Shown here: positions 12,694 to 39,177 of the stretch, piece by piece
Layout of the letters: each line of letters opens with the position of its first letter
Numbering within the stretch: the stretch's first letter is position 1
DNA from: an uncultured Planctomycetales bacterium
GTDB taxonomy: Bacteria > Omnitrophota > Gorgyraeia > Zapsychrales > Aceulaceae
NCBI GenBank assembly: GCA_964648665.1
Contig: CAZYOA010000002.1
Location: 3,056 to 67,055, forward strand
Length of the DNA: 64,000 nucleotides
Direction: 5' to 3'
The notes under the pieces: model-generated
Databases searched by the model: none
The model's input: the letters and a program-made list of their open reading frames with translations, nothing else
What the model was told of the DNA's origin: nothing
Position numbers and translations under genes: made by a program

Positions 12694-12721
12694 AGTATAA
12701 CAGTTTTTAACAGAATGTCAA
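12694..12721 (-). promoter_or_regulatory. sigma70-type promoter of rplM-rpsI
   Basis: In gene orientation it reads TTGACA (12716..12721), a 16-nt spacer ending in TGT, then TATACT (12694..12699). This is a consensus -35 plus an extended -10, about 40 nt upstream of the rplM start. Confidence 0.6.
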
Positions 12722-14635: not shown

Positions 14636-17600
14636 CTAGAGTTCGAGGGGAAACTTTTTTTCTTTTTTATTTTCTTTTGGCACGCCAAAACTAGGCAATA
14701 ATTCAGATAAATCAACACCATCGGCACCATCAAGATAACCGAGATCTCCAGTCTTAAGGTCGAAAGTGTTATTGTTAAAAGAATCGCCGAGTATAACCGC
14801 GCTCCCGCTATCGCCGCCATGTCCTGCAATATTTAAATAATCAGTTGGAATCGTATTTTCAAGAATCCAATTAAATTCTTTTAGTCCTGAAGCCTCATAA
14901 TATAAAACTTGATATCCTCGCTTATCAAAATCTAAAATTGCATCTTCAACACTGTAGTGATTTTTGCTCTTAGAAAAATGAGGACCATCGCTTCTGCCAA
15001 TAATGAAAGTTGCTGTAGGGTGATTTTGATTTGGATTTTTTCTATTTTTGAGAATGATTTTAAGTGCTTCGGTAGAAAAGCGACTTGGAATAAGGATGCT
15101 GTGTTGTGCGAGTTCATAAATAAGCTTTAAGTCTTTAGGTGTCGATTGTTGAATGCCGCCCAAATTATCAATTGTTCTTTCTAGCTTTTTAACAGGAAGG
15201 TGATTTGTATTTTCTAAAAGAAGATTTGTTGCTTGCTTGTTTCCCGTTAAGGCAAGGCCGACAAGTTTTTGTAGAGCTGGTTCATTTACCTTTAAAGTTC
15301 CATCTTCGTTTTCGCTGTAGTGGTCAAAAACCATGCTTGCAAGAATAGCAATGTTTTTGGGGATCGGATTCTCAAAATAGAAATCTAGATTAAGATTCTG
15401 AAACTTATCAATAATTTTAAGTCTTGAAATAAATGAGTCATTTGTTGCAAGAACATCAAATGCTTCAATGTTGCCACTTTCTACTTCTGAAAAGAGCCAA
15501 TCTGCAAAATTTAGCAATATTTCTTGATTTTCTTCGTTGTTTTCAGAACCAAAAGAAAGAACATTAAGATTCCAGTCGATGAGGCTAAGATTGTTTTTGT
15601 ATTGTTCGATGATAGACTCAAGATCAAGATCATTAAAAACTTTTTCAGCTTTTTCAATATAGTAAGTATCAGCTAATAAATCTAGTGTTCGTATAGATTC
15701 CGGGTCCCCTTGGTTGCATTTCTGTTCAAGAAGCGAGTAATCCATTTCTTCAAATTTTTCTTTAAGGCTTTTATCTTGTCTAAAGCCTTCTCCTATAGTG
15801 CCATACGAGAAGATAAGAAGATTAAATATAGTATTATAGTTTCCTTGTTGGGCTGCCTTAATGTATAAATCGTGTGAATCATGAAAGTTTTTCTCAAGAT
15901 CTTCTATTGCTTTCTTAGCTTTCGGGTTCCAGGCCTCTAGGTCTCCCAAAGCGTTTAAGGCTGTGGGATCACCACTCTGAGCCTTTTGAATAATTATCGA
16001 TAAATCTAAGTTTCTAAGAAGTTTCATGTGAAGTTGAGCAGACCTTCCAAAAGTACCTTGTGGTCCCAAGGCGATGCATGCGGCAAAGATGACATCGTCT
16101 AGAGCTTTAACGCTTTCAATGTCTCCTTGTTCAATGCTATTTTGAAAGTATTCGTATCCTCCCTTTTGCATCCAATCTAGGAAATCTTCTGACAATTCAA
16201 GTTTCCATTTTTCTGATCCTTCAGCAATCAATTTTCGAGCAGCAATAATTGGCGCATAGGGGTTATTTTGAGTAACTTGATCCATAATGTCTTGATTGTC
16301 CATTTGCCTGATAGTTTCTTTTTCGGCAGAGCCTTCAGTGCTAACAATTCCTGTTAAATCTTCATACGCTTGTGCGTTGTGTTGTGACTTCATGTATTTA
16401 TTAGAAAATTTTACATCAAAGCCATTGCTTGAGATATGATCGTAGCTAAATTTATCAAAAGTCTTTTTTGAGACACTGTATCTATGGCCATCGATTTTTA
16501 TTGAATAATCATCGGCTCCGATGCTGTATCTACCACTGCTAAACATTCTGCTAGGAGAAGCGTTTTCTTTCCGTTTAGAATATTTATACTGATTCCATGT
16601 TTTAGATCGATGTACATATTTATTTTTTCGATTTGTAAGTTTTTTACTTATATATTCGTCTTCTAGCGTATAAAAATCATTGGCTTGGACATCGACTGTT
16701 TTATCTCCAATAGTGATTGTGTATTTCCATTCTTTAGTTGTTGCGTTATTTTGAGGGCCTTGAGAGAAATCAATTATTTCGCTAGATGTGAGGATATTTT
16801 CTAGTATATTTTCTATTTGAGATTTTTGTGATGAACTATTTCTTGCTTGCTCAGACTTAATGGGATCAATCTGACCATTCTGGTATGCTTGGGCTATAGC
16901 GCTTCCTGAAAATGTTAGCGCAATTGAAACAAGTGTGATGGCTGTTGCTTTTTTAAATTTCTTAATAATGGAGCTTGCGCTTTTTCTCCCCTTCGTACTG
17001 TTTGGTTTTATAATTTCAACATTTTTTGCACTGAAATTTCCAATAAGACCTCCAGAGAAATATCTGCGTTTGACATTTTTCTGTAAATAGGGGTCATATT
17101 CCTTCCGAACATAATTACAGACACCTTTATCCATAGCTGTAATGTATTGATCATAAATTTTATTTGAAATATCATCAACATCAATACCTTTAATTTTTTG
17201 TTTATCAGAATAAATTTTATTAATTATGAAATCTTTGAGATTATTCTTAAACCAATAAGCTAAAACTAAGGAATTGTAGATTTGACGAAGTTTGGCAAAA
17301 TTCTTTCCATAGTTGATTTCTTTGGTGAGTTCAGGAATAATAATTTCTCGAACAATTTCAGAAGCTAGTTTATTTTCAGTTTTTCCTTCAAAGTCTTCAT
17401 CCTCCATCAACGCCAAGTAATCTTGCTCGAGCATGACTTTAAGTTCACTTTTAACAATGAAAGCCTTGTTGCCTTGAACATAAATTTCAGCTTTTTGTGG
17501 CATAATCCAAACTTTATTAAATGTATCAATAGGGATATTTGTTGTCCCATACGTTTCGTATGCTTGTTTGTAGATTTTTTTCCAAAACTTTTTTCCAAGT

Positions 17601-18046
17601 TCATCTTCTGGGTAAATGAGCGATGCTGTAATTTGTTTTAATAAATAGTCTTGGGATAGCATGTCCGTTCCCATCTCTGTTTGAGCAAGAGCTTCTGGGA
17701 TCATACGATCCTTTTCGTATGGGGAAAGATTAACCCAGAGATTGTTTTCGGGGATGGTTAGGGCTGTTAAGAAGTATTTAATAAGTCTTTCGGATTCATT
17801 CTTTAGTTCGGAATCGGAAAGTTTTGTGTCTCCAGAGTTAACAATGAAATCAAGCTTAAGGGCATTCTCAGGATGAATTTTTATGCCTTGTATTACGACA
17901 GGGTTAGATGATTGGCTTGGTTTTATTATTGATCCAGGTTGCGGTAAGATTAGCGTATTTTGGGCATGAACATGATCTGTAAAGGTTGTCATGAGTAAAA
18001 AACATATGGCAAGGCATATGCGTATACATTTTGTTAATATATTCAT
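14636..18046 (-). CDS. giant paralog A, upstream half (1136 aa): signal peptide, family head module, Sel1-like repeats, first half of a caspase-like domain
   Basis: Signal peptide MNILTKCIRICLAICFLLMTTFTDHVHA|Q. Residues ~30-335 align with the N-termini of 25732..32403 and 32545..39009. The ORF ends 60 codons after an AGHGG motif. RBS GGGGAAAAGG lies before the ATG. Confidence 0.9.
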   Translation of the reverse strand: MNILTKCIRICLAICFLLMTTFTDHVHAQNTLILPQPGSIIKPSQSSNPVVIQGIKIHPENALKLDFIVNSGDTKLSDSELKNESERLIKYFLTALTIPENNLWVNLSPYEKDRMIPEALAQTEMGTDMLSQDYLLKQITASLIYPEDELGKKFWKKIYKQAYETYGTTNIPIDTFNKVWIMPQKAEIYVQGNKAFIVKSELKVMLEQDYLALMEDEDFEGKTENKLASEIVREIIIPELTKEINYGKNFAKLRQIYNSLVLAYWFKNNLKDFIINKIYSDKQKIKGIDVDDISNKIYDQYITAMDKGVCNYVRKEYDPYLQKNVKRRYFSGGLIGNFSAKNVEIIKPNSTKGRKSASSIIKKFKKATAITLVSIALTFSGSAIAQAYQNGQIDPIKSEQARNSSSQKSQIENILENILTSSEIIDFSQGPQNNATTKEWKYTITIGDKTVDVQANDFYTLEDEYISKKLTNRKNKYVHRSKTWNQYKYSKRKENASPSRMFSSGRYSIGADDYSIKIDGHRYSVSKKTFDKFSYDHISSNGFDVKFSNKYMKSQHNAQAYEDLTGIVSTEGSAEKETIRQMDNQDIMDQVTQNNPYAPIIAARKLIAEGSEKWKLELSEDFLDWMQKGGYEYFQNSIEQGDIESVKALDDVIFAACIALGPQGTFGRSAQLHMKLLRNLDLSIIIQKAQSGDPTALNALGDLEAWNPKAKKAIEDLEKNFHDSHDLYIKAAQQGNYNTIFNLLIFSYGTIGEGFRQDKSLKEKFEEMDYSLLEQKCNQGDPESIRTLDLLADTYYIEKAEKVFNDLDLESIIEQYKNNLSLIDWNLNVLSFGSENNEENQEILLNFADWLFSEVESGNIEAFDVLATNDSFISRLKIIDKFQNLNLDFYFENPIPKNIAILASMVFDHYSENEDGTLKVNEPALQKLVGLALTGNKQATNLLLENTNHLPVKKLERTIDNLGGIQQSTPKDLKLIYELAQHSILIPSRFSTEALKIILKNRKNPNQNHPTATFIIGRSDGPHFSKSKNHYSVEDAILDFDKRGYQVLYYEASGLKEFNWILENTIPTDYLNIAGHGGDSGSAVILGDSFNNNTFDLKTGDLGYLDGADGVDLSELLPSFGVPKENKKEKKFPLEL
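14654..14660 (-). other. candidate -1 recoding site, or homopolymer indel site, joining the two halves of giant paralog A
   Basis: In gene orientation the sequence is ...GAA AAT AAA AAA GAA AAA AAG TTT CCC CTC GAA CTC TAG. The heptamer A_AAA_AAG lies in the zero frame of the upstream ORF. A -1 slip, or one extra A in the A7 run, reads on as GTT TCC CCT..., which is exactly the frame of ORF 12792..14234. Confidence 0.5.
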
Positions 18047-18141
18047 CCTTTTCCCCGTGGCTTGTTAATAATATTTTAATAAGTATATATATTAAATATA
18101 TCACATAGAAATATTGTTGTAAGGGGGTTTTGGTCAATTAA

Positions 18142-18157
18142 AGAAAGCGTTATCTTT
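18142..18157 (-). promoter_or_regulatory. conserved palindromic box upstream of giant paralog A
   Basis: Plus-strand text is AGAAAGCGTTATCTTT, 96 nt upstream of the start codon. Near-identical boxes lie at 32503..32518 and 39116..39131. Confidence 0.5.
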
Positions 18158-25731: not shown

Positions 25732-28700
25732 TTATTGGATAAGGGTAGAAACGCTAGGAGCAGGAGAAATGCTGATAATCATAGGCCAAAAGCCCTCAAC
25801 TATATTCCAGTCTATGTTTTCGAATTCCCTTGGAATACGAAATGCTATACTGTTCCCTGATGTTTTTATATTCATATTTTTATCATTAAAATCGATACCA
25901 CCTTTTCGCATCTCGTTGTTTGTTGTAAGAAGCGAAGATGCTGATTTTGGATTGATATTAGAATTCCCGCTTTCTGTAGAATTTTGAATTCCTGGATTCT
26001 TGACTTGAACTGTATTTGTTTCATTTTGCGATGTCGATGGGATAACGGGCTCTGTAGCGTTAGAAGAACCGTTCGCTGGCTGCTCTGCCGTAGAATTTTC
26101 TATAAGCGGTTTTATTAAGCTGTCTAAATTTCTTAATTTATTCGAAAGTTCTTTAGCGCTCATGTTTTCAAAAAGATAACTAGCTGATATAAGCGCTTTT
26201 ACGACCGAATGCATTTGATCATATGTTGAGCGCGTAATAATCTTTAATCTTCTTAAAGTTTTTAAGAAGCTTAAAACTTTATTTATATGGCCAATGGCGC
26301 CTCCATTTTTTGAAGTATTATTTTTTTTAATAATTTTGCCAAGAATGGGAATGTTCTCATATTTCTTTACAGTGTTTTGAAAGTTGCTTAAGAAATTGAG
26401 TATTCTCTTTTTATTTCGATCGCTAATGCGCGCAACTCCACCCAAATCAATGATGTTTATTTTTTCAGAACTAATAATAACGTTTCCAGTATGAAGATCC
26501 AAATGGAAAACACCATCAATAAATATTTCAGCTAAAAGTTCATCTCGTAATTCGCCTAGCACTTCATCTGCTCGCGGATCATTTTGTTTTAGAAATTCTT
26601 TTAAGCTTATGCCTTCAACATAAGGTTCCAGGATAGCTGTATTGTTAATCGTTATCTCTGCGACCGGACAGTTAATCTTGCTTCCTCGTTTCTTCATGTT
26701 GGCACTTAGGGTCTCTTGATTGATTTTTTCGCCTTTAAAATTAAGCTCATCTAAAATCATGTTCTCAATGGCCTTTGAAAGTCCTTCTGGAAGATCTATG
26801 AATTTTTCACGCTTTAATTGTCTTAAAGATCGCCTTAAAATCTTAAAATCTTCTTTCCAGACTTTATCTACTTCTGGTCTTTTAATTTTTAAAACCCAAA
26901 GCTTTTCATCGATCTCAACTAAAAAAACATTTTTAATGGATGCATCTCCTAGTCGTTTTTTAATTTTAACGATTTTTCCAGGAAATAATTTCTTTGCATA
27001 ATCTAAAACTGTTCCTATCTCTGATGGATTCGCTTGATCTTTTAAGGAGCTAAGGGCATCTTTTATTTCGTCAGAAAAATTTAATCCTGGGATATCAACA
27101 AGAAGCTGTCCAAGCTTAACGCCGATAACACCATATATTTCTAGAAATTGTTTTATAAAAACGGCTTTTTGTTTTTGTTCAGAGCTTTTTTGAGTAAAAT
27201 CAATTTTTTGTTGCCCATTAATAAGGGCGAGCAAAACAGATTTTTTCTTTTCTGCAGAGCTGAACTTTAAAACAGTGTCGAAAATGGTTTTGAGCCCTTT
27301 GTTCTCAGATGAACCTTCTGGTATAAATTTTTCAAAAACTGTATCTAAAATTTCTTTATAAATAATATCGTCGGCTACAACGCCTCCTGGACCATCAAGA
27401 AACATTTCAAGCATTTTTTTATGAGATACGTTTCCAATGCTTGGATAATAGGATGATTTTAACTCTTCAAGATTTTCCTTTAAATATGTTAGATTGATTT
27501 CGTACTTTTGTTCAATTACAGATAAAGGTTCAGGCTTTTTATCTGATATGCCCATAAGCCAAAGAAGGATATTCTTTTTGCTTCTTGGATTCATGTCTCG
27601 GATAAGCTCAAAGACCTTATCTTCAAGAAAGGTAAATTTTCGATGTTTTTCTTGATCGGCGCTGCTTAAAAAAGAAAGCATATATTGTCGCGTTTTTGCA
27701 TAGATGGAAGAATCCAGAATGTTTTCATCTTTAAGAAAATCATTGAGAATGTCATCTCTTAAATAAGACGGATCCGGAAAATATATTTCAGTGATTTTGG
27801 CGAGATGTTTTTCGGGATCTTTAAAATCTTCAGGGTTTAGCTGCCGGTCCTTTTCAAGAGCTAGAAGTGAATACTTTTCTTTAAAATGAATACTTGAGAA
27901 AATATGCATGACTGTTTTAAAGCGTTCGAATGTGCCATCTTCAAATTTCATTAATTCTGTCAAATAATAATCTCGAACTCTGCTTTCTTCTGGAAATAGA
28001 TCTGTGATATATGATAACTTAGAATCAAAATCCATTTTATTGTCTTTTACCACTTCATCTAAATATGGCTTAAACATATGTGGAATTCCGATTTCAACAT
28101 GAAGAAAGTTTCCATAGATATCATCAAACAAAGGATTTTTAAGTTTGTCTTCGGGTATTTTTTTATTATTCTTGCTTTCGGCTTTCTTCTGATCATCATC
28201 TTCTTCTTTGTTTCTTTGGGTTGCCTCAATCACAAGAAGAAGCAACTCTTTAAAGCCAAACTCTTCGCTTAGTAATTCAGGCATGACATGTCGTATAAGA
28301 AATCCATATTTTTCTCGTAAGACTTCTTTCTTTTCCTCTGTATAGGCATCCCCTATTAGAATGATAAATTTTCTTATAAAGGAAGGTACGTATTTTGACC
28401 AGTCACCAAATAGAACTTTATAGATTGATCGTGCTGTTTTATTAAAAAATAGATTTTTTGAAATGTAATCTTGAGTAAATTTTTTTCCTTCATTCTTAAT
28501 AACATCGGCGTTTTTAATATCGTCTAGAAGAGGCTCATAATCTAAATGCTTAACAATGTTTTTCCATTTCTCGAGTATTTCTTTTATTGATTTGTCATTC
28601 TTGTCTTTGGCTGTTGTATTCAACATTGCGGCATTAACAGCTTTAAGATCAAATTTATTAACAGCATCAGGCAGGATAGATTTCAGATTTCGATCGTAAA

Positions 28701-31700
28701 ATATTGCGTAAACAAAAAGATTGATAACGTGTTTTGGCACTTTGTACATCTTCATCAAATCTGCCATTTCTTCGCATGTGCCATCAAAGCTTAAACGATC
28801 AAAAAATCTAAAGTCTGACCACATGTCACCCTCCTCTGGCGAAAGAATTCTCTTAAGTCTTTCTTTGTCTTGAGTTACATAAAAGGCTCTATACCACGAA
28901 AAGATTCCAAAAAGGTCTAAACTTTCATGCTGAAATCCGTAAGCTACAGAAACACCATTGCTGCCGTCAAGTGCCCAAAATAAGTTTTCTGTATATGTGT
29001 TTATGTCATATCCAAAAGGTAGCTCATAGTTAGGGTCTAGTTTGATTTCTCGAGATCTGATAACTTTTTTTAGTAAAATCTTTTCTTCTTCAGACCAGTT
29101 TTCTCTTCTCATGTTAGCTGCTTGATTAATAAACCAGAAATAATAAATGAGAGCCGCAGCTTTCCAAGATATAGTATTTATGTCAATGTTTGCGTCTCTA
29201 ATTTTCAAATCTTTAATTTTTGACAACACAAATTCTTTGCCACCATTTATATCTGGAACGTAACTTTTTAATTCTTTATAACCACTAGACCCTAGCCAAT
29301 TTATTATGGTTTCATTTTTTTCAGCTTTTTCTTTTTTGTTGTTAGGGATTTTTCTTTCGAGAAGCTCATAAAGTAAGTCAAAAAGTTTTTCTTTAGGCAG
29401 ATTACTATTTGTGTACAGATAATTAAAGCGTGAATAAACCCACGTATCGTTATCAATAAATCCAATAGTTAAGTATTCTCTTAGATCATCGAGATTGTCG
29501 TAGTCAATATTTTCTTGCTTAAGGAAGGATGTAAAGTTAGACGGAAAAGATCGATCTTTAAAGTTTGAACGAGAATATTTGTCGTAAAGTATTTCAAAAA
29601 GCCATTTGCGGGAATTTGGACTCTTTTTCATTAGTTCTTCAAGAAAGAAGTATTCGTTATTCTGTCCGTAAAAGGTTCCTCTGCCTGCATTTCCTAAATC
29701 GATATACAGAGATAAAAAGGGTTTAGTTAAATTTTTAGTTTTTGCCATAAACGAGAACACAAGTTCTTGTGCATCTCCAGCGCCTCTGAAAGAATTTTCT
29801 TTAATCTTATGATTCTTATTCTTGATACTTGCTATTTTATTTAAGAGTAAAATAAATTTTTTAAGTTGATTGATGTCAACGCTTTCGTTTGCATAAACCT
29901 GACCAGCTTTTTGCATGAGATAGGTATCTTCAAACCAAAATAAACTTTCGTAAAGATCACCTAAATCTAGATTAAGATGGCTTTCGATATCGTCATAGGA
30001 TAGGGCTTCAAAGTCTTTGTACCAGTCGGTTTTTGGTTTAAGATAATTTGAAATCATTAATTGTATAATTTTGTCTGTAACATGAGGCAATCGCTCGGTG
30101 ATTGCATTTTTTAGTGAATCTGAAATTTCCTCTTTCTCGGTAAATACCGAACGTTGATTGATCCTTTCCTCGATAGACATATTCATGTTTGAAATGTTGT
30201 TAAATGATGCATTGTGGTGCTCAACGGTTCGAAATCGTGCCTTTTGAAAAAGATTTAATAAATCAACTTGAAAGCTTTTATCTGTAGGGTTAAGTGACTG
30301 GATTTCTTTAATATAATCTTTTTCTGTAAACACTATTCCTTTATTTTTTTTAATGCGTTTTTTTAAAGTTTTTGTATCTTGAAAGAAATCGGCGGAGAAC
30401 TTTTGTGGTTTTAAGTCATATGTTGGCCAGTATTGATTTAAAAGAGCATCTTCAAGCCTCGCAACTCTTCTAGCTAAGGTTGGATAATGAATTCCTGCAA
30501 GACTAACGGCTTTGCTTGACATCCCTTTTATTTTTAAACGTTCGCTAAAGAACTTTGTTGATTCCTGAACATTAAATCCTGCTTTTTCCATCAATGAAAG
30601 AATTGCTAAGTCTGATGCTGTTTCATTTGAATATCGATCGACAATTCCATTGATAGTTTTTATAACATTATTATGGCCTTTTTCTTTCTCTTTTTTCTTT
30701 CGATTTTCTTCTGGGTGTGCTATGGCTCTTAAAATATGTCCAGTTTCGTGTGCCAATATTGACGCCAAAACATCTTTAGAGAAGTTTTTTTCTGTCATGT
30801 GGGACAACAAGCCCGCGTTGACAATAATATGACTGCTATGTGGAATGATGCAAGCATTGACAGATGGATCACCAACAATTGATAATTCAAAAAGTTGTGG
30901 ATCCAAACCTGCTGCAGTCAGAATTTTGTCTAGTATTTCTCTAACTTCTTTATGCATTTTATTCTGCTTGCTTAGTTTTCCAGCTTCACTGATCCATTCT
31001 CGCATATATTTATCAGCATCTTCTTGAAGAAAAAAATAGTCATCAAGGCTAATGTTACCATTTTCTTGGATTTCAGGCTCAGATCCTGGAATAACCATAT
31101 TAAAAATATTCTTAACAGATGAGATGTTGTTCGATGCTGATAAGTTTGAAGATATAGAACGAAAGCCTGATTCACCATTTTCATCTTTAGAAGGATTTGC
31201 AACGAACATGATATTTGTTAGATCTTGATTGCCGTATTTGCTTAACAGCATGGATCTAGATCTTGCGCTTTGTGTGAAATTTATATTTTCTCCGATTTCT
31301 AAGTTTGTGACATTGACACCACCAGAAAAATATTTTCTTGGAACATTTTTTTTCTCGTATTTATCGTATTCAACTTTAACAAAGTCACAAATTCCCTTTT
31401 TAAAGGATTTTATATATTGTTCGTAGATGTCTTTTGATAGGTTGGCAGCACTTACTCCTTCTATTTTAATCTTATCAGTATAAACTTTACTAAAGATAGA
31501 ATTTTTAAAACTATTTTTAAACCAATACGCTAAGATTAAAGAATTATAAATCTGTCTAAGTTGAGCGAAGTTTTTGCCCTGATTGACTTCTTTTTCTAGA
31601 GCAGGGATGACAACCTCACGGACAATTTCGGAAGCAAGTTTATTGTTGGCTTTCTTATTAGTATTACTTGATTGAACTATGTCCCTTGCTTTTAGCGCTT

Positions 31701-32403
31701 GGGACTGCGAAGCGTCCCCTGTGGATTCCTCATCGTGCTGTAATGCTACATAATCCTCTTCAAGCATAACCTTTAGTCGCGCTTGTACGATAAATGCCCG
31801 ATCATTTTTTACATAAACTTCGGCATAGTCCGGAATGATCCAAACTTTGTTAAAAGTGTCAATTGGGATATTGGTCGTGCCGTATTTCTCATAAGATTTT
31901 TTATAAATTCTTCGCCAGAATTCTTTTCCTAATTCATCTTCAGGGTAGATTAAAGAGGCCGTAACTTGTTTCAGCAAATAATCTTGAGCTAGCATATCTA
32001 TGCCGAGATCTGTTTTTGCAAGAGATTCTGGAATGATTCTATCTTTTTCATAGGGTGATAAGTTTACCCATAAATTGTCATCAGGAATTGTTAAAGAGGC
32101 CATAAAATATTTAATAAGTTTTAATGCTTCAGGCTTGAGATCATCAGATTTTAGTTCTGTATCGCCAGAATCAACAATAAAATCAAATTTAAATGCATTT
32201 TCGGGATGTAATTTAATTCCCCTTAATATGACGGGCGTAAAGCCAGAGCTTAAAGAAACGATATTCCCTGGCGCAGGTAGTCCTAATGTGCTGAGTTGGG
32301 CTAAGGCATAAGATGGGCAGAGGCTATTTATGCCAAAAAATAGAATTATGGCTAGACAGATAATTTTGAAAGTTTGCGATTTTTTATAATAAAAGTAAAA
32401 CAT
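25732..32403 (-). CDS. giant paralog B (2223 aa): signal peptide, family head, M48-like HExxH peptidase, long helical region, UbiB/ABC1-type kinase domain, family tail
   Basis: Signal peptide ...LCPSYALA|Q and head at aa ~36-362. The M48 pattern is VNACIIPHSSHIIVNAGLL...LASILAHETGHILRA (HETGH at 30736..30750) plus HYPTLARRVARLE. The ABC1 pattern is GVKLGQLL...LKDQANP...LGDASIKNVF...LKIKRPEV...ILDELNF...GVFHLDLHTGNVII...IIDLGG (26380..27147). The tail is GGIDFNDKNMNIKTSGNSIAFRIP...GFWPMIISISP at the very C-terminus. Confidence 0.9.
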   Translation of the reverse strand: MFYFYYKKSQTFKIICLAIILFFGINSLCPSYALAQLSTLGLPAPGNIVSLSSGFTPVILRGIKLHPENAFKFDFIVDSGDTELKSDDLKPEALKLIKYFMASLTIPDDNLWVNLSPYEKDRIIPESLAKTDLGIDMLAQDYLLKQVTASLIYPEDELGKEFWRRIYKKSYEKYGTTNIPIDTFNKVWIIPDYAEVYVKNDRAFIVQARLKVMLEEDYVALQHDEESTGDASQSQALKARDIVQSSNTNKKANNKLASEIVREVVIPALEKEVNQGKNFAQLRQIYNSLILAYWFKNSFKNSIFSKVYTDKIKIEGVSAANLSKDIYEQYIKSFKKGICDFVKVEYDKYEKKNVPRKYFSGGVNVTNLEIGENINFTQSARSRSMLLSKYGNQDLTNIMFVANPSKDENGESGFRSISSNLSASNNISSVKNIFNMVIPGSEPEIQENGNISLDDYFFLQEDADKYMREWISEAGKLSKQNKMHKEVREILDKILTAAGLDPQLFELSIVGDPSVNACIIPHSSHIIVNAGLLSHMTEKNFSKDVLASILAHETGHILRAIAHPEENRKKKEKEKGHNNVIKTINGIVDRYSNETASDLAILSLMEKAGFNVQESTKFFSERLKIKGMSSKAVSLAGIHYPTLARRVARLEDALLNQYWPTYDLKPQKFSADFFQDTKTLKKRIKKNKGIVFTEKDYIKEIQSLNPTDKSFQVDLLNLFQKARFRTVEHHNASFNNISNMNMSIEERINQRSVFTEKEEISDSLKNAITERLPHVTDKIIQLMISNYLKPKTDWYKDFEALSYDDIESHLNLDLGDLYESLFWFEDTYLMQKAGQVYANESVDINQLKKFILLLNKIASIKNKNHKIKENSFRGAGDAQELVFSFMAKTKNLTKPFLSLYIDLGNAGRGTFYGQNNEYFFLEELMKKSPNSRKWLFEILYDKYSRSNFKDRSFPSNFTSFLKQENIDYDNLDDLREYLTIGFIDNDTWVYSRFNYLYTNSNLPKEKLFDLLYELLERKIPNNKKEKAEKNETIINWLGSSGYKELKSYVPDINGGKEFVLSKIKDLKIRDANIDINTISWKAAALIYYFWFINQAANMRRENWSEEEKILLKKVIRSREIKLDPNYELPFGYDINTYTENLFWALDGSNGVSVAYGFQHESLDLFGIFSWYRAFYVTQDKERLKRILSPEEGDMWSDFRFFDRLSFDGTCEEMADLMKMYKVPKHVINLFVYAIFYDRNLKSILPDAVNKFDLKAVNAAMLNTTAKDKNDKSIKEILEKWKNIVKHLDYEPLLDDIKNADVIKNEGKKFTQDYISKNLFFNKTARSIYKVLFGDWSKYVPSFIRKFIILIGDAYTEEKKEVLREKYGFLIRHVMPELLSEEFGFKELLLLVIEATQRNKEEDDDQKKAESKNNKKIPEDKLKNPLFDDIYGNFLHVEIGIPHMFKPYLDEVVKDNKMDFDSKLSYITDLFPEESRVRDYYLTELMKFEDGTFERFKTVMHIFSSIHFKEKYSLLALEKDRQLNPEDFKDPEKHLAKITEIYFPDPSYLRDDILNDFLKDENILDSSIYAKTRQYMLSFLSSADQEKHRKFTFLEDKVFELIRDMNPRSKKNILLWLMGISDKKPEPLSVIEQKYEINLTYLKENLEELKSSYYPSIGNVSHKKMLEMFLDGPGGVVADDIIYKEILDTVFEKFIPEGSSENKGLKTIFDTVLKFSSAEKKKSVLLALINGQQKIDFTQKSSEQKQKAVFIKQFLEIYGVIGVKLGQLLVDIPGLNFSDEIKDALSSLKDQANPSEIGTVLDYAKKLFPGKIVKIKKRLGDASIKNVFLVEIDEKLWVLKIKRPEVDKVWKEDFKILRRSLRQLKREKFIDLPEGLSKAIENMILDELNFKGEKINQETLSANMKKRGSKINCPVAEITINNTAILEPYVEGISLKEFLKQNDPRADEVLGELRDELLAEIFIDGVFHLDLHTGNVIISSEKINIIDLGGVARISDRNKKRILNFLSNFQNTVKKYENIPILGKIIKKNNTSKNGGAIGHINKVLSFLKTLRRLKIITRSTYDQMHSVVKALISASYLFENMSAKELSNKLRNLDSLIKPLIENSTAEQPANGSSNATEPVIPSTSQNETNTVQVKNPGIQNSTESGNSNINPKSASSLLTTNNEMRKGGIDFNDKNMNIKTSGNSIAFRIPREFENIDWNIVEGFWPMIISISPAPSVSTLIQ

Positions 32404-32502
32404 AAAACGCCTTTCTTCGCATTAATCTTACATGGACATCCATCCCGACATATAAAGTATAAACTATATATATGTATATATAAGAGGTTTAGAGTGATTT
32501 CA

Positions 32503-32518
32503 AGAAAGCGTTTTCTTT
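32503..32518 (-). promoter_or_regulatory. conserved palindromic box upstream of giant paralog B
   Basis: Plus-strand text is AGAAAGCGTTTTCTTT, 100 nt upstream of the ATG at 32401..32403. The AGAAA/TTTCT arms are inverted repeats around GCGT. Confidence 0.5.
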
Positions 32519-32544: not shown

Positions 32545-35500
32545 TTATGTGCTTTGTAAGGCTAATTTTTGATCTTTGTTTTCTTGATCATCTAGGCCTA
32601 AAAGGCCTGTAAAGCTTGTTATAGGAGTTATATTAATGATGACAGGAGTGAATCCATCGATATTGGTGAGATCAACATTTTGCATATCAAGAGGAATATC
32701 AAAATCGATCTGCCCTCCTTTTGTTGTTATGTTCATATTTTCAGCGTTAAAGTCAATTCCGCCGGTTGACGAGATATTCTTTGAGGATTTTGTATCCGCG
32801 TTTGGCGCGTCACGAGATAGAATAGATTTAATCATTGGATTATTTTCTAAAAGCTCTTCCGAAATCACTCGAACTGTTTCCAAACCCGAATTTCTTGCTT
32901 TTTCGACTAAACTCTTTGCATCCTCAATATACAGAAGCTGCTTTAAGGACACAATGCCAATTCTATTACTTTGATCTAAAAGACTGTCTTGTGCCTTTAA
33001 GAATTCAAATAATCTCTGATAAACATTTGGGTCCTTTTTGCTGACGCCTAATATTATTGGGCTAATGCGTTTATATTTCGCTAAAAACTTTAGTTCATGC
33101 ATAGCCATTAATATATTGTAAGTTATGCTATGCATATTAGTAAAAATCTCTACTCTAAGGCCTTTTGCTTCTAATTTCTCCAATAATTCTTTTCTACCTT
33201 TTATAGGCTTATAGAATCTCACTAAGAAGTCTTGTAAGAGTGGTCTTTGTTTTTCTTTTTGTGCTAAATATATATTTCTTCTTCTATGTTGAACAGAATC
33301 CGGTGTATGTGCTGCAAACAACTCCTCCATGCTCCTTAAGGCATACTCCCAATATGCTTTCTCATATTCTGGTTTTGTTCTATATTTGGCAGCCTCCTCA
33401 CCTGTTTTGAATACATCTACTAATTTATTTATATCGCTAATGCCAAAATATTCTCCAATATATTCAATCCCTTCAGCTATGCCATCAGTAACGAGAGTGC
33501 CAGTTAAATCTGAAATAATCATTTTTACTTCTTTTGCTGTCGTCGCATCATCACCTGTACGTCTAGACCCCGGCTCGCCTACTGTTTTTATTTCCGATGA
33601 TGCAATCTGACTGCTTGAGGCTTTCTTTAATCCAGTAGATTTTTCAACTAAAAGCTGTCTTCCTTCGTTTTCAGTAAAAACCTCTAAATCTTTATTTTGT
33701 AAAATAGAAGTGAACATCATAGCTGTCATGTCGTAAAATTCAGAAGGAAGAAAAGTGTCTCCCTGGCTTACGCCAAGAATTTCTCCTTGATCCAAAATAT
33801 CTGTATTTAATTTTCCGAATAAAATATTGTTTTCGTTTACACTGTTATTCGGAGATAACGAGACCTGAAATGCTAATAATGGATTTTGATTTGCTTTCTT
33901 AGCATTTAAAATCCATCCTGTTTCCACTCCCCCCTCTGGCAGGTTGTCAACATTATCATTTTCATCAAAGAGCGCATTGTAATAATCTTCGCCTTTTTCG
34001 TTAAAGTGTTGAACAAAGAGATCCTTGATAATTTCTTTTCCTGGGAAAAAGAAAACAATTGGATGTTGTTTCTTTCGAACAGCATCTGTTTTTGCTGCTA
34101 AGAAGTGACGTCCAAAAATTGGTTTCTTTTCTTCGTCACTGCCTCGTTCTTTCCTAACTGTTTTTATTATGGACCTTAAGTAATCGGCCTCTTTTCCAGA
34201 CCCAGGTTCTCCTCTATCAGCTTCAGAAACTGTGACTTGTGGATTTTGTGAGAATTTCTGATTTAAGAAATGAGTAAAAGACCAATTGTGATTATAGGAA
34301 TCACAACTAAGATTGAAGAAGCGTGTTTGACTAAAATCTCCAGATTCACTTAGAGCGCTTGCTATTTCTTCGTAGTTTAGGTATTCTCCATAATCAAAGG
34401 CAAGGCGATTTGCTGTGATATCTAAGAAATGTGAAATTTTGTTAAATGCGTCTTGATCGTAAGCTGTTTTTAAATATTCTTTAATTTCATCTAAGTCTGC
34501 AATGAGTTTCATTTGCTCATGCTCTTCTTCTGCAAAGTTGTTGTCGACTAAATTTTTATGCAAAGCTTCCCAGCCAATGTCGTAGTTCTCCACTTCATCT
34601 CGTTCAAAAATTGGCGTATTGTGTCCTCTGAAAAGAACGACTCTTGACCCGCGGCTTGCTTTCAAGGCTTTAATAACATCTTCTTTTTTATCTTTCCCTC
34701 CTTTAAAAGAAAATATTTTATCTTCAAGAACTCCTCCTAATTCTGCAAGTTCTTCTGCTTCTTCGACGAGAAATTTTTCCTCTACGTTTAGAATGTTAAT
34801 GACTGTTGTGTTTTTGTCGTAATATATTTCGTTGCCGCTAATTTTTTGAAAATCAATAGCTAAGGAAATAGCATTGTTGATATGTTCGTTATCGTAAGGC
34901 ATTTTTGATCCCGCAAGAATTCTTAGCGAGGAGATGAGAAGTGAGATTTTTTCATTTTTTGTTTTCTTCTTAAGTTTTCTAGAAAAACCTAGATCTTTAC
35001 TAAAAAAGAAGTCTGAATTTCTTTGGACAATATTATCTGCGTATTCAAAAACAACATCAGGATTATTCTCAAGAATTTCAACGAGTCCACTTGTGAATTC
35101 TTCTTGAAGATCTTTTGATCTAAATTTTGCATTAAAGTTTTGAAGGCCAAAGATAGGAGATTTCCCGATAAGGCCGAGTAAGATTTGAGGTTGTTTTTCG
35201 CTTTCAAAATAAGAGTAAGCCCAAAATTTTATGGCAAGATCGGGGTGCTTGTTCATAGCATCTTTTAGTATTTCTCTAAAATCATTGATGTCTTTAAAAA
35301 ATGGTGCAATATCAAGAAAATTCTTAATGAGCTCTTTTGCATATTTGTCGGGGTTTTTCTTTATATTGTTAGCCAAGTTTATGTAATAAAGCTCTTCAGG
35401 ATCGGATATTTCTTTATTTTTATTTTTATTTGTTCTTTGGAATTTTATAGCTTGATCATTTTCTTTTTGAGGTTTCAAGTTTTGATTGCCTTGTTTTGCT

Positions 35501-38500
35501 TCTTGATTTTCTCTTTTATAAATTTCTTCTCTAATAAAATCTTCTAAGATTTCCTTAATTCCTTTCGCTTCTTTTCTTGCTGCTTTTGAAATTTCTTGAT
35601 GTTTTTCAGCAGCGGGTTGTTTAAAATTTCTTGGTTTTTTAACCTTAAGACTTAAGATTCCTAATCTTGAGAAACGCGGGTGTCCTGTGTAAGCTGTAAT
35701 ATCAATAACAGCACTATCTTCATATTTTTTAACTGCAGCAAAGACAAATCCTTGCTGCTGGAGCATTCTGCTTACAGAATAATCTGGGCCACTTGGTTGA
35801 GGATAAAACTGCATCCTTTCTGTGTCGCCTTTATTTTTGTTGATACCTGTATGAAAATGCATTGATGCAAAAGAAAATCCTTTTGGACCTCTTGGAGCCC
35901 AAACATCATCATTAAAAAGATATGACGGCCTATTTTCGAACATAAGGGAACCTTGAAGATCAATAAACATTACTTTTCCTGTTTCAGCCGTTTTATCAGC
36001 AACATCCTGATAGTAAAATTGAGCTATTGAATCAGTAAAGCTTTCATTTTGCAATGCTTCGTACATTGCCAGAGAACGCAATAAAAATAATGTAGAATAC
36101 TCATCGGTATCCTCTATGCTAAGTCTTGAATTTTTGTTTTTAGGGCTTGTCAAAGGTTTCGCATAGATTTTTGATTTAATTTCTTGCTCTAGAAGTTTTC
36201 GATTTGATAGTAGGTCATAAAAGTGCTTGTCTCTTGCAATATAATCGATAAGAAATAGATCGCTTATGGCTAGCCATTCTCCTTCATTTTCTAATTTTCT
36301 TACAATTTTATCGATTTTATCTTTATTAAAAGTTCGAGATAAAATAAGAAAAGGAACAGCCTCTTTAACAGAAAAGGTTTTGTCCGGAAATTTCTCGCGA
36401 ACATAATCAAGCGTTTCTTGGAATTGATCAGAATACAAAAGATCTCTGTATTCTGGATTGTCGCTAATAAAGTTATAGAGATCACAAGCTCCAAAGACGT
36501 CCTCTATATTTCGTATTCTTCGATCTTTAAAAATAGTGTCGTTAACTCGATAGTAAAATTTCTGAAAATCATCGCGGGCAATTATTTTGGCTATTCTAGG
36601 TTCTTTGGATAAAGCAATAATTTTCCAGGTGGGAATTTGATCAGCGTAGAAATTTTTGCCTAGAATGTCAAAATTCATATTAAAAAGTTTCTCTGCTGCC
36701 TTAAGGCTTTCTTTCGACAATCCATATTGTTTGGAAAGTTTTTCGAAATCTGTGGTGTCGTTATTAAAAAGGTAGAACCCTTCGGCCCAGCGTTTAAGAA
36801 AATATTCTTCAATTTTAGAAAAATCATAGCTTTCAATGTTGAGAGGCTTTTGATTAAAAGTATTAACATATAAAGAGTGTGCAGAGTTAGCAAGAGCAGA
36901 ACCTTGAATGGATTGCATAAAAAGAGATAACATTTCGTAGTTAAAGTAATAGTCACCATCGTTATATTTCTTTTCAATATCTTTTTTGTTTTGTTTTATA
37001 TATTCTTCTGCACTTCTTTTTTCTTGTTCCCTGTTGAAGATTTTTCTGCCATCTTGACTCACAATCCCGGGGTATTCAACGGCAAGTCTTAAAGATAATG
37101 TTTTTCTATAGATTTCCTTTTCTTTATTAATGACAAACTGTTTATAGCCAAGAGTGTCTAGGGTTTCTCCTGTAATCATCTGCGCTGCGAACGCATGCTG
37201 AATGGGCGTATTCGGACAATCTTGGAGGAGCAATAAATCCATCATGATTGTTTTAGGGTCTCGGCTGGAAGCCAGCATGGCTAGATAAGATTCAAATTCA
37301 TATGTTGTGTATGTTGATATATTTCCGTATGGGATATAGTATTTATCTAACAATTTATTGATATTCGCAATTTGATCATCGCTAAAGTCATTCTTTTCTC
37401 TTTGCTTATGTGTCATTTCATGAACGATAACTGCATGCATCCAGTCTTTTAAAAATTTAAGCTTTCCTTCTTTTGTTAGAAATATTTTTTGATTTAGGAT
37501 AGAGCCCATAAAGCTGTACGGACTTTGAACATATCCAGATATTCTTTCGATGTCTTGATAAAATGCTTCTAAATAGATTTCGATATTGTTTCCATCCACA
37601 CTTCTTCCAACGGCATCAACTGTTCCATCATCTAAGAATTTTACTTTTATATCTTGATCTAATATTTTAAATTCTTGCTCGTCAACGATTTCAGGGTTTT
37701 TATTTCTAGAGCTTTTTAAAGAATCTTTTTCTTTTGGAGATTGACTTAAAGAAAAAAGATTATCTTGAAACTCTAGTCGAGAAAAGCTTCCTAGATCTAC
37801 TTTATGAACCTGACTCTTATTGTTAGATTCTTGACTGTTTTCAAAAGATGGACTTGCAAGAGCAGCTACAGTTAAGCTTACTGTAACTAAAATAACCAAT
37901 GTTGCATTTGTTAGAAATTTCCTTAAGTTACTTCCCGCTCTCCTCCCTCTTCGACTGTCCGCTTTTGTCACTATAATATTGCTTGATGCAAAACTTCCAA
38001 CAACTCCACCTGAAAAATACTTTCTAGGAATATTCTTTCTTGTATATTGGTCGTATTCCACCTTAACAAAATCACACACACCTTTTTCAAAAGATTTAAC
38101 ATATTGATTATAGATGTCCTTTGAGATATCTTTGGTATCTACACCTTTAATCTTGCTTTGATCAGAATAAACCTTGTTTACAATAGATTCTTTTAAGTTA
38201 TTCTTAAACCAATAGGCTAAAACTAAAGAGTTATAAATCTGTCTAAGCTGAGCGAAGTTTTTGCCTTCATTGACTTCCTTTTCAAGAGCTGGAATAACAA
38301 TTTCACGAACGATTTCAGAAGCGAGTTTGTTGTCGGCTTTCTTGGCACTATTTTCAATAACAGAGCTATTTAATGCTACATAATCTTCTTCTAACATAAC
38401 CTTAAGTTTAGACTCAACTACGAAGGCTCTATCATCCTTTACATAGACTTCAGCCTTGTCAGGCATGATCCAGACCTTATTAAAAGTATCTACAGGGATG

Positions 38501-39009
38501 TTAGTAGTTCCATACTGCTCATAAGCTTTTTTATAGATCTTCTGCCAGAATTGTTTACCTAATTCATCTTCTGGGTAGATTAAAGAAGCTGTGATTTGTT
38601 TTAAGAGATAGTCTTGGGAGAGCATATCTGTACCCATATCTGTAACAGCTAGAGAATTAGGAATGATTCTGTCTTGTTCATGAGGAGATAGGTTAACCCA
38701 TAGGTTGTCTTCAGGAATAGTTAAAGCGGTTAGAAAGTACTTGATAAGACGTTCAGAAACATCTTTTAATTCAGATCCTTTAAGCCCGGTATCTCCAGAA
38801 TCGACGATAAAGTCGAATTTAAGAGCATTGTCAGGATAGACTCTTATTCCACGAAGAATGGCTGGGGTGAATTGCGGGCTGAGTCCTACCATGGATCCAG
38901 GAGCAGGTAAAGAAAAAGCACCTTGGGCCAGAGCTTGATTAGGTGTAACTATAGTTGCCAAAAAGCAAACTATAATTAAAATACATATTGTCTTTCTAAA
39001 TATTTTCAA
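32545..39009 (-). CDS. giant paralog C (2154 aa): signal peptide, family head, hydrophobic segment, HExxH zincin, JAB-like motifs, His/Cys motif pair, HAD-like domain, family tail
   Basis: TTG start preceded by GGAGGG, and signal peptide MKIFRKTICILIIVCFLATIVTPNQALA|Q. HEMTH lies at 37408..37422. The JAB-like set E...HFH...SGPD lies at 35782..35985. RVVLFRGHN (His 34621..34623) and FFNLSCDS (Cys 34303..34305) form the His/Cys pair. HAD motifs are MIISDLTGTLV, EIFTN, KKDPNVY and LLYIEDAKSLVEKARNSG (32860..33525). The tail is GGIDFNAENMNITTKGGQIDFDIP...GFTPVIINITP. Confidence 0.9.
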   Translation of the reverse strand: MKIFRKTICILIIVCFLATIVTPNQALAQGAFSLPAPGSMVGLSPQFTPAILRGIRVYPDNALKFDFIVDSGDTGLKGSELKDVSERLIKYFLTALTIPEDNLWVNLSPHEQDRIIPNSLAVTDMGTDMLSQDYLLKQITASLIYPEDELGKQFWQKIYKKAYEQYGTTNIPVDTFNKVWIMPDKAEVYVKDDRAFVVESKLKVMLEEDYVALNSSVIENSAKKADNKLASEIVREIVIPALEKEVNEGKNFAQLRQIYNSLVLAYWFKNNLKESIVNKVYSDQSKIKGVDTKDISKDIYNQYVKSFEKGVCDFVKVEYDQYTRKNIPRKYFSGGVVGSFASSNIIVTKADSRRGRRAGSNLRKFLTNATLVILVTVSLTVAALASPSFENSQESNNKSQVHKVDLGSFSRLEFQDNLFSLSQSPKEKDSLKSSRNKNPEIVDEQEFKILDQDIKVKFLDDGTVDAVGRSVDGNNIEIYLEAFYQDIERISGYVQSPYSFMGSILNQKIFLTKEGKLKFLKDWMHAVIVHEMTHKQREKNDFSDDQIANINKLLDKYYIPYGNISTYTTYEFESYLAMLASSRDPKTIMMDLLLLQDCPNTPIQHAFAAQMITGETLDTLGYKQFVINKEKEIYRKTLSLRLAVEYPGIVSQDGRKIFNREQEKRSAEEYIKQNKKDIEKKYNDGDYYFNYEMLSLFMQSIQGSALANSAHSLYVNTFNQKPLNIESYDFSKIEEYFLKRWAEGFYLFNNDTTDFEKLSKQYGLSKESLKAAEKLFNMNFDILGKNFYADQIPTWKIIALSKEPRIAKIIARDDFQKFYYRVNDTIFKDRRIRNIEDVFGACDLYNFISDNPEYRDLLYSDQFQETLDYVREKFPDKTFSVKEAVPFLILSRTFNKDKIDKIVRKLENEGEWLAISDLFLIDYIARDKHFYDLLSNRKLLEQEIKSKIYAKPLTSPKNKNSRLSIEDTDEYSTLFLLRSLAMYEALQNESFTDSIAQFYYQDVADKTAETGKVMFIDLQGSLMFENRPSYLFNDDVWAPRGPKGFSFASMHFHTGINKNKGDTERMQFYPQPSGPDYSVSRMLQQQGFVFAAVKKYEDSAVIDITAYTGHPRFSRLGILSLKVKKPRNFKQPAAEKHQEISKAARKEAKGIKEILEDFIREEIYKRENQEAKQGNQNLKPQKENDQAIKFQRTNKNKNKEISDPEELYYINLANNIKKNPDKYAKELIKNFLDIAPFFKDINDFREILKDAMNKHPDLAIKFWAYSYFESEKQPQILLGLIGKSPIFGLQNFNAKFRSKDLQEEFTSGLVEILENNPDVVFEYADNIVQRNSDFFFSKDLGFSRKLKKKTKNEKISLLISSLRILAGSKMPYDNEHINNAISLAIDFQKISGNEIYYDKNTTVINILNVEEKFLVEEAEELAELGGVLEDKIFSFKGGKDKKEDVIKALKASRGSRVVLFRGHNTPIFERDEVENYDIGWEALHKNLVDNNFAEEEHEQMKLIADLDEIKEYLKTAYDQDAFNKISHFLDITANRLAFDYGEYLNYEEIASALSESGDFSQTRFFNLSCDSYNHNWSFTHFLNQKFSQNPQVTVSEADRGEPGSGKEADYLRSIIKTVRKERGSDEEKKPIFGRHFLAAKTDAVRKKQHPIVFFFPGKEIIKDLFVQHFNEKGEDYYNALFDENDNVDNLPEGGVETGWILNAKKANQNPLLAFQVSLSPNNSVNENNILFGKLNTDILDQGEILGVSQGDTFLPSEFYDMTAMMFTSILQNKDLEVFTENEGRQLLVEKSTGLKKASSSQIASSEIKTVGEPGSRRTGDDATTAKEVKMIISDLTGTLVTDGIAEGIEYIGEYFGISDINKLVDVFKTGEEAAKYRTKPEYEKAYWEYALRSMEELFAAHTPDSVQHRRRNIYLAQKEKQRPLLQDFLVRFYKPIKGRKELLEKLEAKGLRVEIFTNMHSITYNILMAMHELKFLAKYKRISPIILGVSKKDPNVYQRLFEFLKAQDSLLDQSNRIGIVSLKQLLYIEDAKSLVEKARNSGLETVRVISEELLENNPMIKSILSRDAPNADTKSSKNISSTGGIDFNAENMNITTKGGQIDFDIPLDMQNVDLTNIDGFTPVIINITPITSFTGLLGLDDQENKDQKLALQST

Positions 39010-39066
39010 TGTTTCCCTCCGTGACTAAGAAAACACTATTTTCAGTTTAATTTCCTGACTATTAAA

Positions 39067-39088
39067 GTATATAATATATATATATATA
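39067..39088. repeat. TA dinucleotide tract in the divergent intergenic region upstream of giant paralog C
   Basis: GTATATA followed by an uninterrupted ATATATATATATATA (39074..39088). Shorter, interrupted TA tracts sit at the equivalent place upstream of paralogs A (18081..18101) and B (32455..32482). Confidence 0.8.
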
Positions 39089-39115
39089 AAAAATAAGCCC
39101 ATAATGGGCATTTTG

Positions 39116-39131
39116 AGAAAGCGTTTTCTTT
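39116..39131 (-). promoter_or_regulatory. conserved palindromic box upstream of giant paralog C
   Basis: Plus-strand text is AGAAAGCGTTTTCTTT, 107 nt upstream of the TTG start at 39007..39009, and identical to the copy at 32503..32518. Confidence 0.5.
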
Positions 39132-39177
39132 TTTATGAGCTTGCGATGGGTTTTTAGTGTGTTATAATATCATTTAT

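Follow-up and report, generated by a model that had tools for sequence, protein, structure and literature searches.

A CG-centred palindromic box at promoters of giant secreted proteins and Flp pilins in Omnitrophota: a probable operator of a dimeric transcription factor

A palindromic box is conserved at fixed promoter positions across the Omnitrophota and is therefore most likely the docking site of one transcription factor. The box was interpreted as the operator of a dimeric helix-turn-helix (HTH) factor, most likely of the LacI/GalR type, which would act according to its position and would serve a subset of a family of giant secreted proteins together with the Flp pilin operon. The probability of this reading was put at about 0.65.

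The Omnitrophota are uncultured, mostly ultra-small bacteria that are thought to be predators or parasites, and giant secreted proteins and Tad pili are their main candidates for host attachment (PMC10066038; bioRxiv 10.1101/2023.11.21.568195). An operator common to the giant-protein family and the pilin operon would provide a first handle on their regulation and a testable link between pili and polymorphic secreted proteins. The box could also serve as a short probe for pull-down of the regulator, and its motif could be used to predict co-expressed paralogues in metatranscriptomes. There was no mention of a promoter or a palindromic motif in PMC10066038, bioRxiv 10.1101/2023.11.21.568195 or a 2026 preprint, and a full-text literature search for the 12-mer core returned no report of the motif in this phylum. 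As far as the searched literature goes, the regulon and the phylum-wide positional conservation are new; the kind of element itself is ordinary.

The box and the promoters of three giant genes

The window, that is the whole 64 kb stretch of DNA that was analysed, carries three giant genes on the minus strand: gene A (14636..18046, 1136 aa), gene B (25732..32403, 2223 aa) and gene C (32545..39009, 2154 aa, TTG start). All three encode a signal peptide and a conserved N-terminal domain of ~340-440 aa, which is 56-67% identical between copies; across the wider Omnitrophota family of secreted proteins to which they belong, only ~340 aa of this N-terminal domain are shared. The products of genes B and C also have ~90 C-terminal residues in common. 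The other regions of the three proteins are unrelated, with M48 peptidase-like and ABC1 kinase-like regions in B, a HAD hydrolase-like region in C and no recognisable domain in the interior of A. Judged from their sequences, the three proteins are polymorphic and built like cassettes. More than 1000 homologues of the N-terminal domain were found, of which the named ones are nearly all from Candidatus Omnitrophota MAGs, and at the genome level Candidatus Aceula meridiana and A. lacicola are the nearest relatives. This domain had no Pfam match, and its AF2 model (pLDDT 67.5) gave no meaningful PDB match. The neighbouring genes in the window encode housekeeping enzymes, and no transcription factor was found among 28 window ORFs scanned with Pfam.

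The preliminary description had located the box as AGAAAGCGTTATCTTT at 18142-18157 and AGAAAGCGTTTTCTTT at 32503-32518 and 39116-39131, lying 96, 100 and 107 nt upstream of the start codons of genes A, B and C (18046, 32403 and 39009). It had also noted a TATACTT in gene orientation starting at 18081, 32455 and 39065, and an rplM promoter with TATACT at 12694-12699. These strings, coordinates and distances were all correct, the rplM promoter reading TTGACA-16-TGtTATACT. The impression that there were no further copies in the window also held: a search with the 16-mer AGAAAGCGTTWTCTTT allowing ≤2 mismatches returned three matches in 64 kb, all of them the known boxes, against 0.42 expected, and none of 100 shuffles reached three.

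The core had been described as AGAAA-GCGT-TTTCT, with two arms around a spacer. The palindrome stood, but the spacer proved not to be arbitrary, the unit being a palindrome of 14-16 bp with a central CG. Based on a position weight matrix (PWM) built from family upstream sites, the refined element is AAGAAA[A/G]CG[T/C]TTTCTT. Box A, AAGATAACGCTTTCTT in gene orientation (18141..18156, PWM score 19.6), is a 16-bp palindrome with the central CG and one arm mismatch. Box B, AAGAAAACGCTTTCTT (32502..32517, PWM score 24.3), lies 27 nt downstream of the gene C stop codon, and Box C, AAGAAAACGCTTTCTC (39115..39130, PWM score 23.3), is situated in the divergent intergenic region common to gene C and a PHP-domain gene. 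The three copies are identical at 15-16 of 16 positions, and their flanks are not conserved. A weaker box-like sequence, GGAGAAGCGTTTTCTT (16554-16569, PWM score 14.9), falls within the coding region of gene A and is probably due to chance.

For each gene, a -35-like hexamer lies 17 nt after the box on the minus strand, namely CTTACA at 18118..18123 (gene A), CTTATA at 32479..32484 (gene B) and CTTATT at 39092..39097 (gene C). For gene B, the -10 hexamer TATACT (32456..32461, minus strand) follows 40 nt after the box, and the spacer between the two hexamers (32462-32478) is TA-rich. For gene C, TATACT (39066..39071, minus strand) follows 43 nt after the box with a 20-nt spacer. The TATACTT noted earlier thus contains the -10 hexamer assigned to genes B and C. 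For gene A, the working -10 is more likely TATATT (18095..18100, minus strand), which lies 40 nt after the box and is preceded by TGn (CTTACA-17-TGaTATATT), because the box-to--10 spacing is conserved in homologues; the TATACTT (18081-18087) proposed previously is 13 nt further downstream. Since the strong rplM promoter likewise uses TATACT(TT) as its -10, the box-associated -10 hexamers can be regarded as ordinary sigma-70-type elements.

Most of the gene C spacer (39072-39091) is occupied by a (TA)n tract of period 2 and 11 copies (39068..39088), which overlaps the -10 hexamer by 4 nt (39068-39071). This tract lengthens the spacer to 20 nt and shifts the gene C promoter by 3 nt from the conserved register. 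Within the window, TA tracts of ≥12 nt are confined to two promoter spacers, those of genes B and C (32465-32482 and 39068-39088). In the hif locus of Haemophilus influenzae, a (TA)n tract between -35 and -10 causes phase variation. Gene C likewise has a pure (TA)n between these elements, and slippage there could switch the gene on and off. In contrast to hif, no variation in tract length was seen, and the TA-rich spacers of the Omnitrophota homologues are shorter and interrupted, so that the gene C tract may simply reflect promoter composition. In L001, the sole other contig returned, the promoter region of gene A is identical and differences occur only >2 kb upstream.

Several smaller features accompany these promoters. 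In the gene C promoter, Box C is separated from the -35-like hexamer by a terminator-like hairpin, GCCCATTATGGGC followed by TTATTTTTTA (39097-39109, minus strand), and a G+C-rich patch occurs at the same spot, between the box and the -35-like hexamer, in several homologues. On the plus strand, a good divergent promoter, TTGCGA-16-TGtTATAAT (39141-39168), precedes the PHP-domain gene; since it is downstream of the listed GTG start (39157), the start of this gene is probably the ATG at 39178. The centre of Box C is ~52 nt upstream of the likely start site of the divergent promoter, and the box could affect the promoter of the PHP-domain gene as well.

Conservation across Omnitrophota and two promoter architectures

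A total of 80 homologous loci from species-representative genomes were collected, and the 400 nt upstream of each were examined. As a non-circular test, the 14-mer AGAAAACGCTTTCT, taken from the window alone, was searched with ≤2 mismatches. Of the 77 independent upstream regions (30 kb), 22 contained one match each, compared to only 2 matches in the remaining 405 kb, so that the upstream regions of the family are enriched more than 100-fold. The PWM scores were bimodal, being ≥15 in 32 of 79 upstream regions and below ~8 in nearly all others, and all 31 PWM matches in 450 kb of homologous loci fell within ~500 nt upstream of a family gene. All three window genes share the box, but only ~41% of the family genes are boxed, in two different positions relative to the promoter, and 59% are without the box.

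The consensus of 35 aligned sites over 16 columns is AAGAAAnCGnTTTCTT. The central CG is nearly invariant (34/35 sites), with C8 present in ≥90% of the sites and G9 invariant. The flanks of the box diverge among the homologous loci, and the box itself is kept across many genomes in which the N-terminal domains are only ~50-55% identical. Taken together, the enrichment, the position and the non-conserved flanks rule out both chance and simple inheritance from duplication. The bare 16-mer is a different matter: exact matches to AAGAAARCGYTTTCTT were found metagenome-wide at 119 loci or more in unrelated metagenomic DNA. Among the matches listed, none adjoins a family gene, about half are inside ORFs and the GC content ranges from 0.28 to 0.69. 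With matches in unrelated organisms and within ORFs, the bare 16-mer is not diagnostic, and these matches are uninformative about the promoters of the family.

The boxed promoters were sorted into two classes. Class 1 comprises the three window genes and 11 further loci (L002, L009, L012, L014, L023, L033, L039, L057, L063, L072 and L081). The order is box, 17 nt, -35-like hexamer (CTTATA, CTTACA or CTTGTT, with CC in front), 17-18 nt, and TATACT or TATATT followed by TT. The end of the box and the -10 are exactly 40 nt apart in nine family loci; two loci have 41 nt, and one each has 42 and 43 nt. The shared promoter architecture proposed in the preliminary description is supported by this fixed distance of 40-41 nt. 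Placed by consensus hexamers and counting the -10 as -12 to -7, the centre of the class 1 box would be at about -60.5 or -61.5. The class 1 promoters of the family have poor -35 hexamers and were not called by a sigma-70 scan.

Class 2 (L007, L017, L021, L035, L047, L059, L071, L077, L078, L080 and others) has a good promoter, ccTTGnnn-17-TGnTATnnT, upstream of the box, which begins 2-17 nt after the extended -10. Its centre would therefore lie at ~+3 to +19, as estimated from consensus hexamers only.

Three of the listed AAGAAARCGYTTTCTT matches (L082, L136 and L165) exhibited a class-1-like layout with strong promoters. In L082, the box precedes an array of ~8 Flp-type pilin genes. This locus belongs to the Omnitrophota, as its TadZ/TadA ATPase has homologues that are 82-88% identical and named Candidatus Omnitrophota. 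Further Tad loci were collected through TadA homologues, and in the six with a Flp pilin array (L082, L201, L202, L204, L207/L208 and L209) the box was found at the same place in every case, with scores of 12-24. The Tad loci without a pilin array (L203 and L206) had no box. The Flp promoters are arranged as box, 17-18 nt, TTGACA, ~18 nt, and TATATT or TATAGT, and several of the Flp sites retain the left half-site alone.

Immediately upstream of the Flp box is a gene of ~520 aa, restricted to the Omnitrophota, that sits between DUF192 and the Flp pilin array of the Tad loci (L082 6701-8269; L201 14083-15645; L202 12929-14488; L204 11737-13296; L207 12675-14234; L209 12892-14457). Because this gene is only 27-52% identical among these loci, the Flp box represents a phylogenetic footprint and not merely sequence that has yet to diverge. 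Several Tad loci adjoin GGDEF response regulators. A sigma-54 promoter was considered for the Flp leader and rejected: by eye, CGGTATCGGATCGGC shows a GG-N10-GC spacing but otherwise hardly resembles TGGCAC-N5-TTGC, and its conservation does not extend to L202 or L209.

The other two matches precede different genes. In L136, the box at 4514 has class 1 geometry (17 nt, TTGAAA, 18 nt, TATACT) and precedes a PilZ-domain gene (4671-5060); one of the genes beside it shares 53-60% identity with a gene of the Omnitrophota locus L062. In L165, the box at 3583 is accompanied by the promoter TTGACA-17-TGcTATACT and then by a c-di-GMP-I-GGC riboswitch (3429-3504, minus strand, 63.6 bits), downstream of which is a protein of >1000 aa without Pfam domains.

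The candidate regulator and the alternatives

The preliminary description had also proposed that the genes answer to a common dimeric DNA-binding regulator. This is supported by the recurrence of the box in many Omnitrophota genomes with diverging flanks, and further by arms that vary independently and a match to footprinted LacI-family operators. Across the 35 sites, the arms paired in 77.1% of cells compared to 77.0% after shuffling, with no excess covariation. Such independent variation of the two arms fits half-sites read by a protein and not an RNA stem; what the sites have in common would be a pair of half-sites on double-stranded DNA that a dimer recognises. The boxed genes would accordingly be expected to be co-regulated. 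What the sequences show directly is conservation, specificity of position, fixed spacing, no RNA covariation and identity to known LacI-family operators; we infer the promoters (assigned by consensus only), binding by a protein, the family to which the regulator belongs and whether it activates or represses.

The aligned sites resemble the operators of LacI/GalR-type factors. These operators are even-length palindromes of 14-22 bp with a central CG, and both features are found in the 16-column alignment of the 35 sites. Even palindromes with a central CG account for 1173 of 1303 LacI-family motifs, and the operators of this family occupy a range of -140 to -30 (PMC4052901), within which the boxes lie. 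Most of the papers that contained the 12-mer core in the full-text search dealt with the LacI family. There is also a direct sequence match to experimentally defined LacI-family operators, as AGAAAACGCTTTCT is a DNase-I-footprinted low-affinity site of the Bacillus subtilis LacI-family repressor IolQ (PMC5504672). The ideal palindrome proposed for IolQ is AGAAAGCGCTTTCT (PMC5504672), to which the box of L012 is equal. In addition, the cre box given for CcpA at yisS has the sequence AGAAAACGCTTTCT (PMC3463425).

For CcpA, a cre site upstream of the -35 activates and one that overlaps or lies downstream represses, in a manner that depends on the helix face (PMC3463425). By analogy, this rule offers a precedent for the two classes of box. 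A dimeric LacI/GalR-like factor would bind the 14-16 bp palindrome as a dedicated cis-element of the Omnitrophota. At class 1 and Flp promoters, with the box centred at about -60.5 or -61.5, the bound dimer could touch RNA polymerase, and such contact would mean either activation or a modulation like that at the GalR operator OE. At class 2 promoters (~+3 to +19), a protein bound downstream of the strong extended -10 would block transcription.

The likeness to the IolQ (DegA) and CcpA systems thus comprises an even palindrome with a central CG, the identical 14-mer AGAAAACGCTTTCT, an operator ~100 nt upstream of the start codon in both, and a position-dependent outcome, which for the Omnitrophota box is proposed only. 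The targets differ, being sugar catabolism genes in B. subtilis and giant secreted proteins and pilins here. The outermost bases of the Omnitrophota box are A...T as opposed to T...A in cre and, unlike in the IolQ and CcpA systems, the upstream Omnitrophota copies hold one exact distance to the promoter.

A geometric parallel is provided by the gal operon of Escherichia coli, where a GalR dimer bound at OE (-60.5) modulates RNA polymerase by contact and not by occlusion. The class 1 boxes would similarly be LacI-family operators centred ~60.5 bp upstream. The gal system also has a second operator, OI, and DNA looping, whereas the 16-mer search of the 64 kb and the PWM scan of the loci revealed no additional box close to the window genes.

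The identical 16-mer was also found next to LacI-family genes in unrelated metagenomic bacteria. In L184 (box at 6138) it has a LacI-family gene on one side and a sugar ABC transporter on the other, and in L158 it occurs twice (1719 and 1823) before an ABC transporter adjoining a LacI-family gene. These two loci, with their sugar or peptide ABC transporters, can be viewed as natural positive controls for a LacI-type operator.

Several observations count against the LacI/GalR assignment. Tblastn with LacI, PurR and CcpA as queries detected no LacI-family gene in ~700 kb of Omnitrophota DNA from partial genomes, and Pfam detected none among the 28 window ORFs. The Flp promoters have a perfect TTGACA with no obvious need of an activator. 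The A...T outer bases, the Flp sites with a half-site only, the 59% of family genes without a box and the common occurrence of the bare 16-mer also weigh against it, and a strictly fixed upstream position is characteristic of class I activators such as those of the CRP/FNR type more than of most LacI-family repressors.

Based on that distance, a factor of the CRP/FNR or LuxR type is a real alternative, although an unlikely one. The box would then be a class I activator site, AGAAA-N4-TTTCT, for a dimer of the CRP/FNR or NarL/LuxR type that recruits RNA polymerase through the alpha C-terminal domain, maybe in response to c-di-GMP. At lac, a class I promoter, CRP is centred at -61.5. The class 1 boxes are comparable in being palindromes of 14-16 bp with 5-bp arms at a fixed distance near -61 from weak -35 hexamers. 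The spacing between box and -10, strictly conserved in family as well as Flp promoters, and the poor -35 hexamers of the class 1 family promoters, missed by the sigma-70 scan, are in line with such an activator. A response to c-di-GMP would suit the boxed PilZ gene of L136, the riboswitch of L165 and the GGDEF regulators beside Tad loci. Against this stands the sequence itself. The half-site is AGAAA, with CG at the centre of the spacer, and not TGTGA or TTGAT around an unconstrained spacer; CRP/FNR spacers are normally unconstrained, and the central CG of the box is nearly invariant (34/35 sites). The set of class 2 sites downstream of the -10 and the identity to LacI-family operators also argue against a class I activator, and no CRP/FNR- or LuxR-type regulator gene was identified either.

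A further candidate binder is the ~520-aa protein encoded beside the Flp box, which may be a domesticated transposase according to its modelled fold. In each of the six Flp loci its gene directly adjoins the box, members of its family occur in the Omnitrophota only, and three orthologues had weak matches to HTH_32 or HTH_Tnp_Tc3, consistent with an N-terminal HTH. The AF2 model (pLDDT 86) gave full-length Tn5 transposase as the best PDB match with a probability of 0.85. However, the HTH matches were below the Pfam thresholds, the fold match was marginal (E = 1e-3, TM 0.2), and no homologue was present in the window or the 80 family loci. Moreover, the end-binding sites of transposases are not normally CG-centred palindromes, and adjacency alone is weak evidence. 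A role for this Tn5-transposase-like protein as the regulator that binds the box was considered improbable.

It is highly improbable that the box works as RNA, in the form of a small stem-loop in the transcript used for intrinsic termination, for stabilisation or for protein binding. The box is palindromic, a T run follows it on the plus strand and class 2 boxes would be transcribed. However, the hairpins predicted in gene orientation were very weak (-1.4 to -2.7 kcal/mol) and not clearly apart from shuffles (z -2.4 to 0.0), the arms vary independently without covariation, the class 1 and Flp boxes are upstream of the -35, and the bases of the would-be loop (CG) are the most conserved positions. 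There were no Rfam matches in the window, terminator scans did not call the box, and the stable G+C-rich stem and U run with covariation expected of a Rho-independent terminator were not seen.

Equally little credence was given to the view that the similarity reflects a recent duplication or recombination of 5' ends, or an A/T-rich UP-like element, with no specific regulator involved: the N-terminal coding regions are 56-67% identical, so that the 5' ends are related by descent, and the box is A/T-rich, but the near-identical boxes have unconserved flanks, and the box is retained both at ~50-55% identity of the N-terminal domain and at the unrelated Flp operon. A UP element would be at odds with the position (-68 to -53 or downstream of the -10) and with the invariant CG.

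A possible surface-contact regulon and accompanying motifs

A broader and rather doubtful proposal is that the box stands at the centre of a surface-contact regulon spanning the phylum, in which one factor would couple the Tad/Flp pilus, c-di-GMP effectors and the polymorphic family of giant secreted proteins. If this were true, the c-di-GMP effectors would be represented by the PilZ protein and the riboswitch-controlled large protein. The two opposite promoter architectures, with boxes at -60.5 and over the start site, would let one signal switch some paralogues on and others off, and slippage of TA repeats in the promoter spacer would give stochastic on/off control of individual paralogues.

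A second motif was seen in the leaders. Gene A has CCACGG (18055..18060, minus strand) just 5' of the Shine-Dalgarno sequence, and the related CACGG is present in the gene C leader (39019-39023). The CCACGG leader motif was found in 10 of 32 boxed family loci compared to 3 of 47 unboxed ones. In L007, L013, L017, L033, L077 and L080, (G)CCACGG(A) is located 10-15 nt 5' of the Shine-Dalgarno sequence, and it also occurs in the Flp pilin leaders of L082, L202, L204 and L209. The motif may be a site for a translational regulator. Finally, intein domains were detected by Pfam within DNA gyrase subunits of two Omnitrophota genomes, in gyrA of L201 (1-1046) and gyrB of L206 (1-2684).
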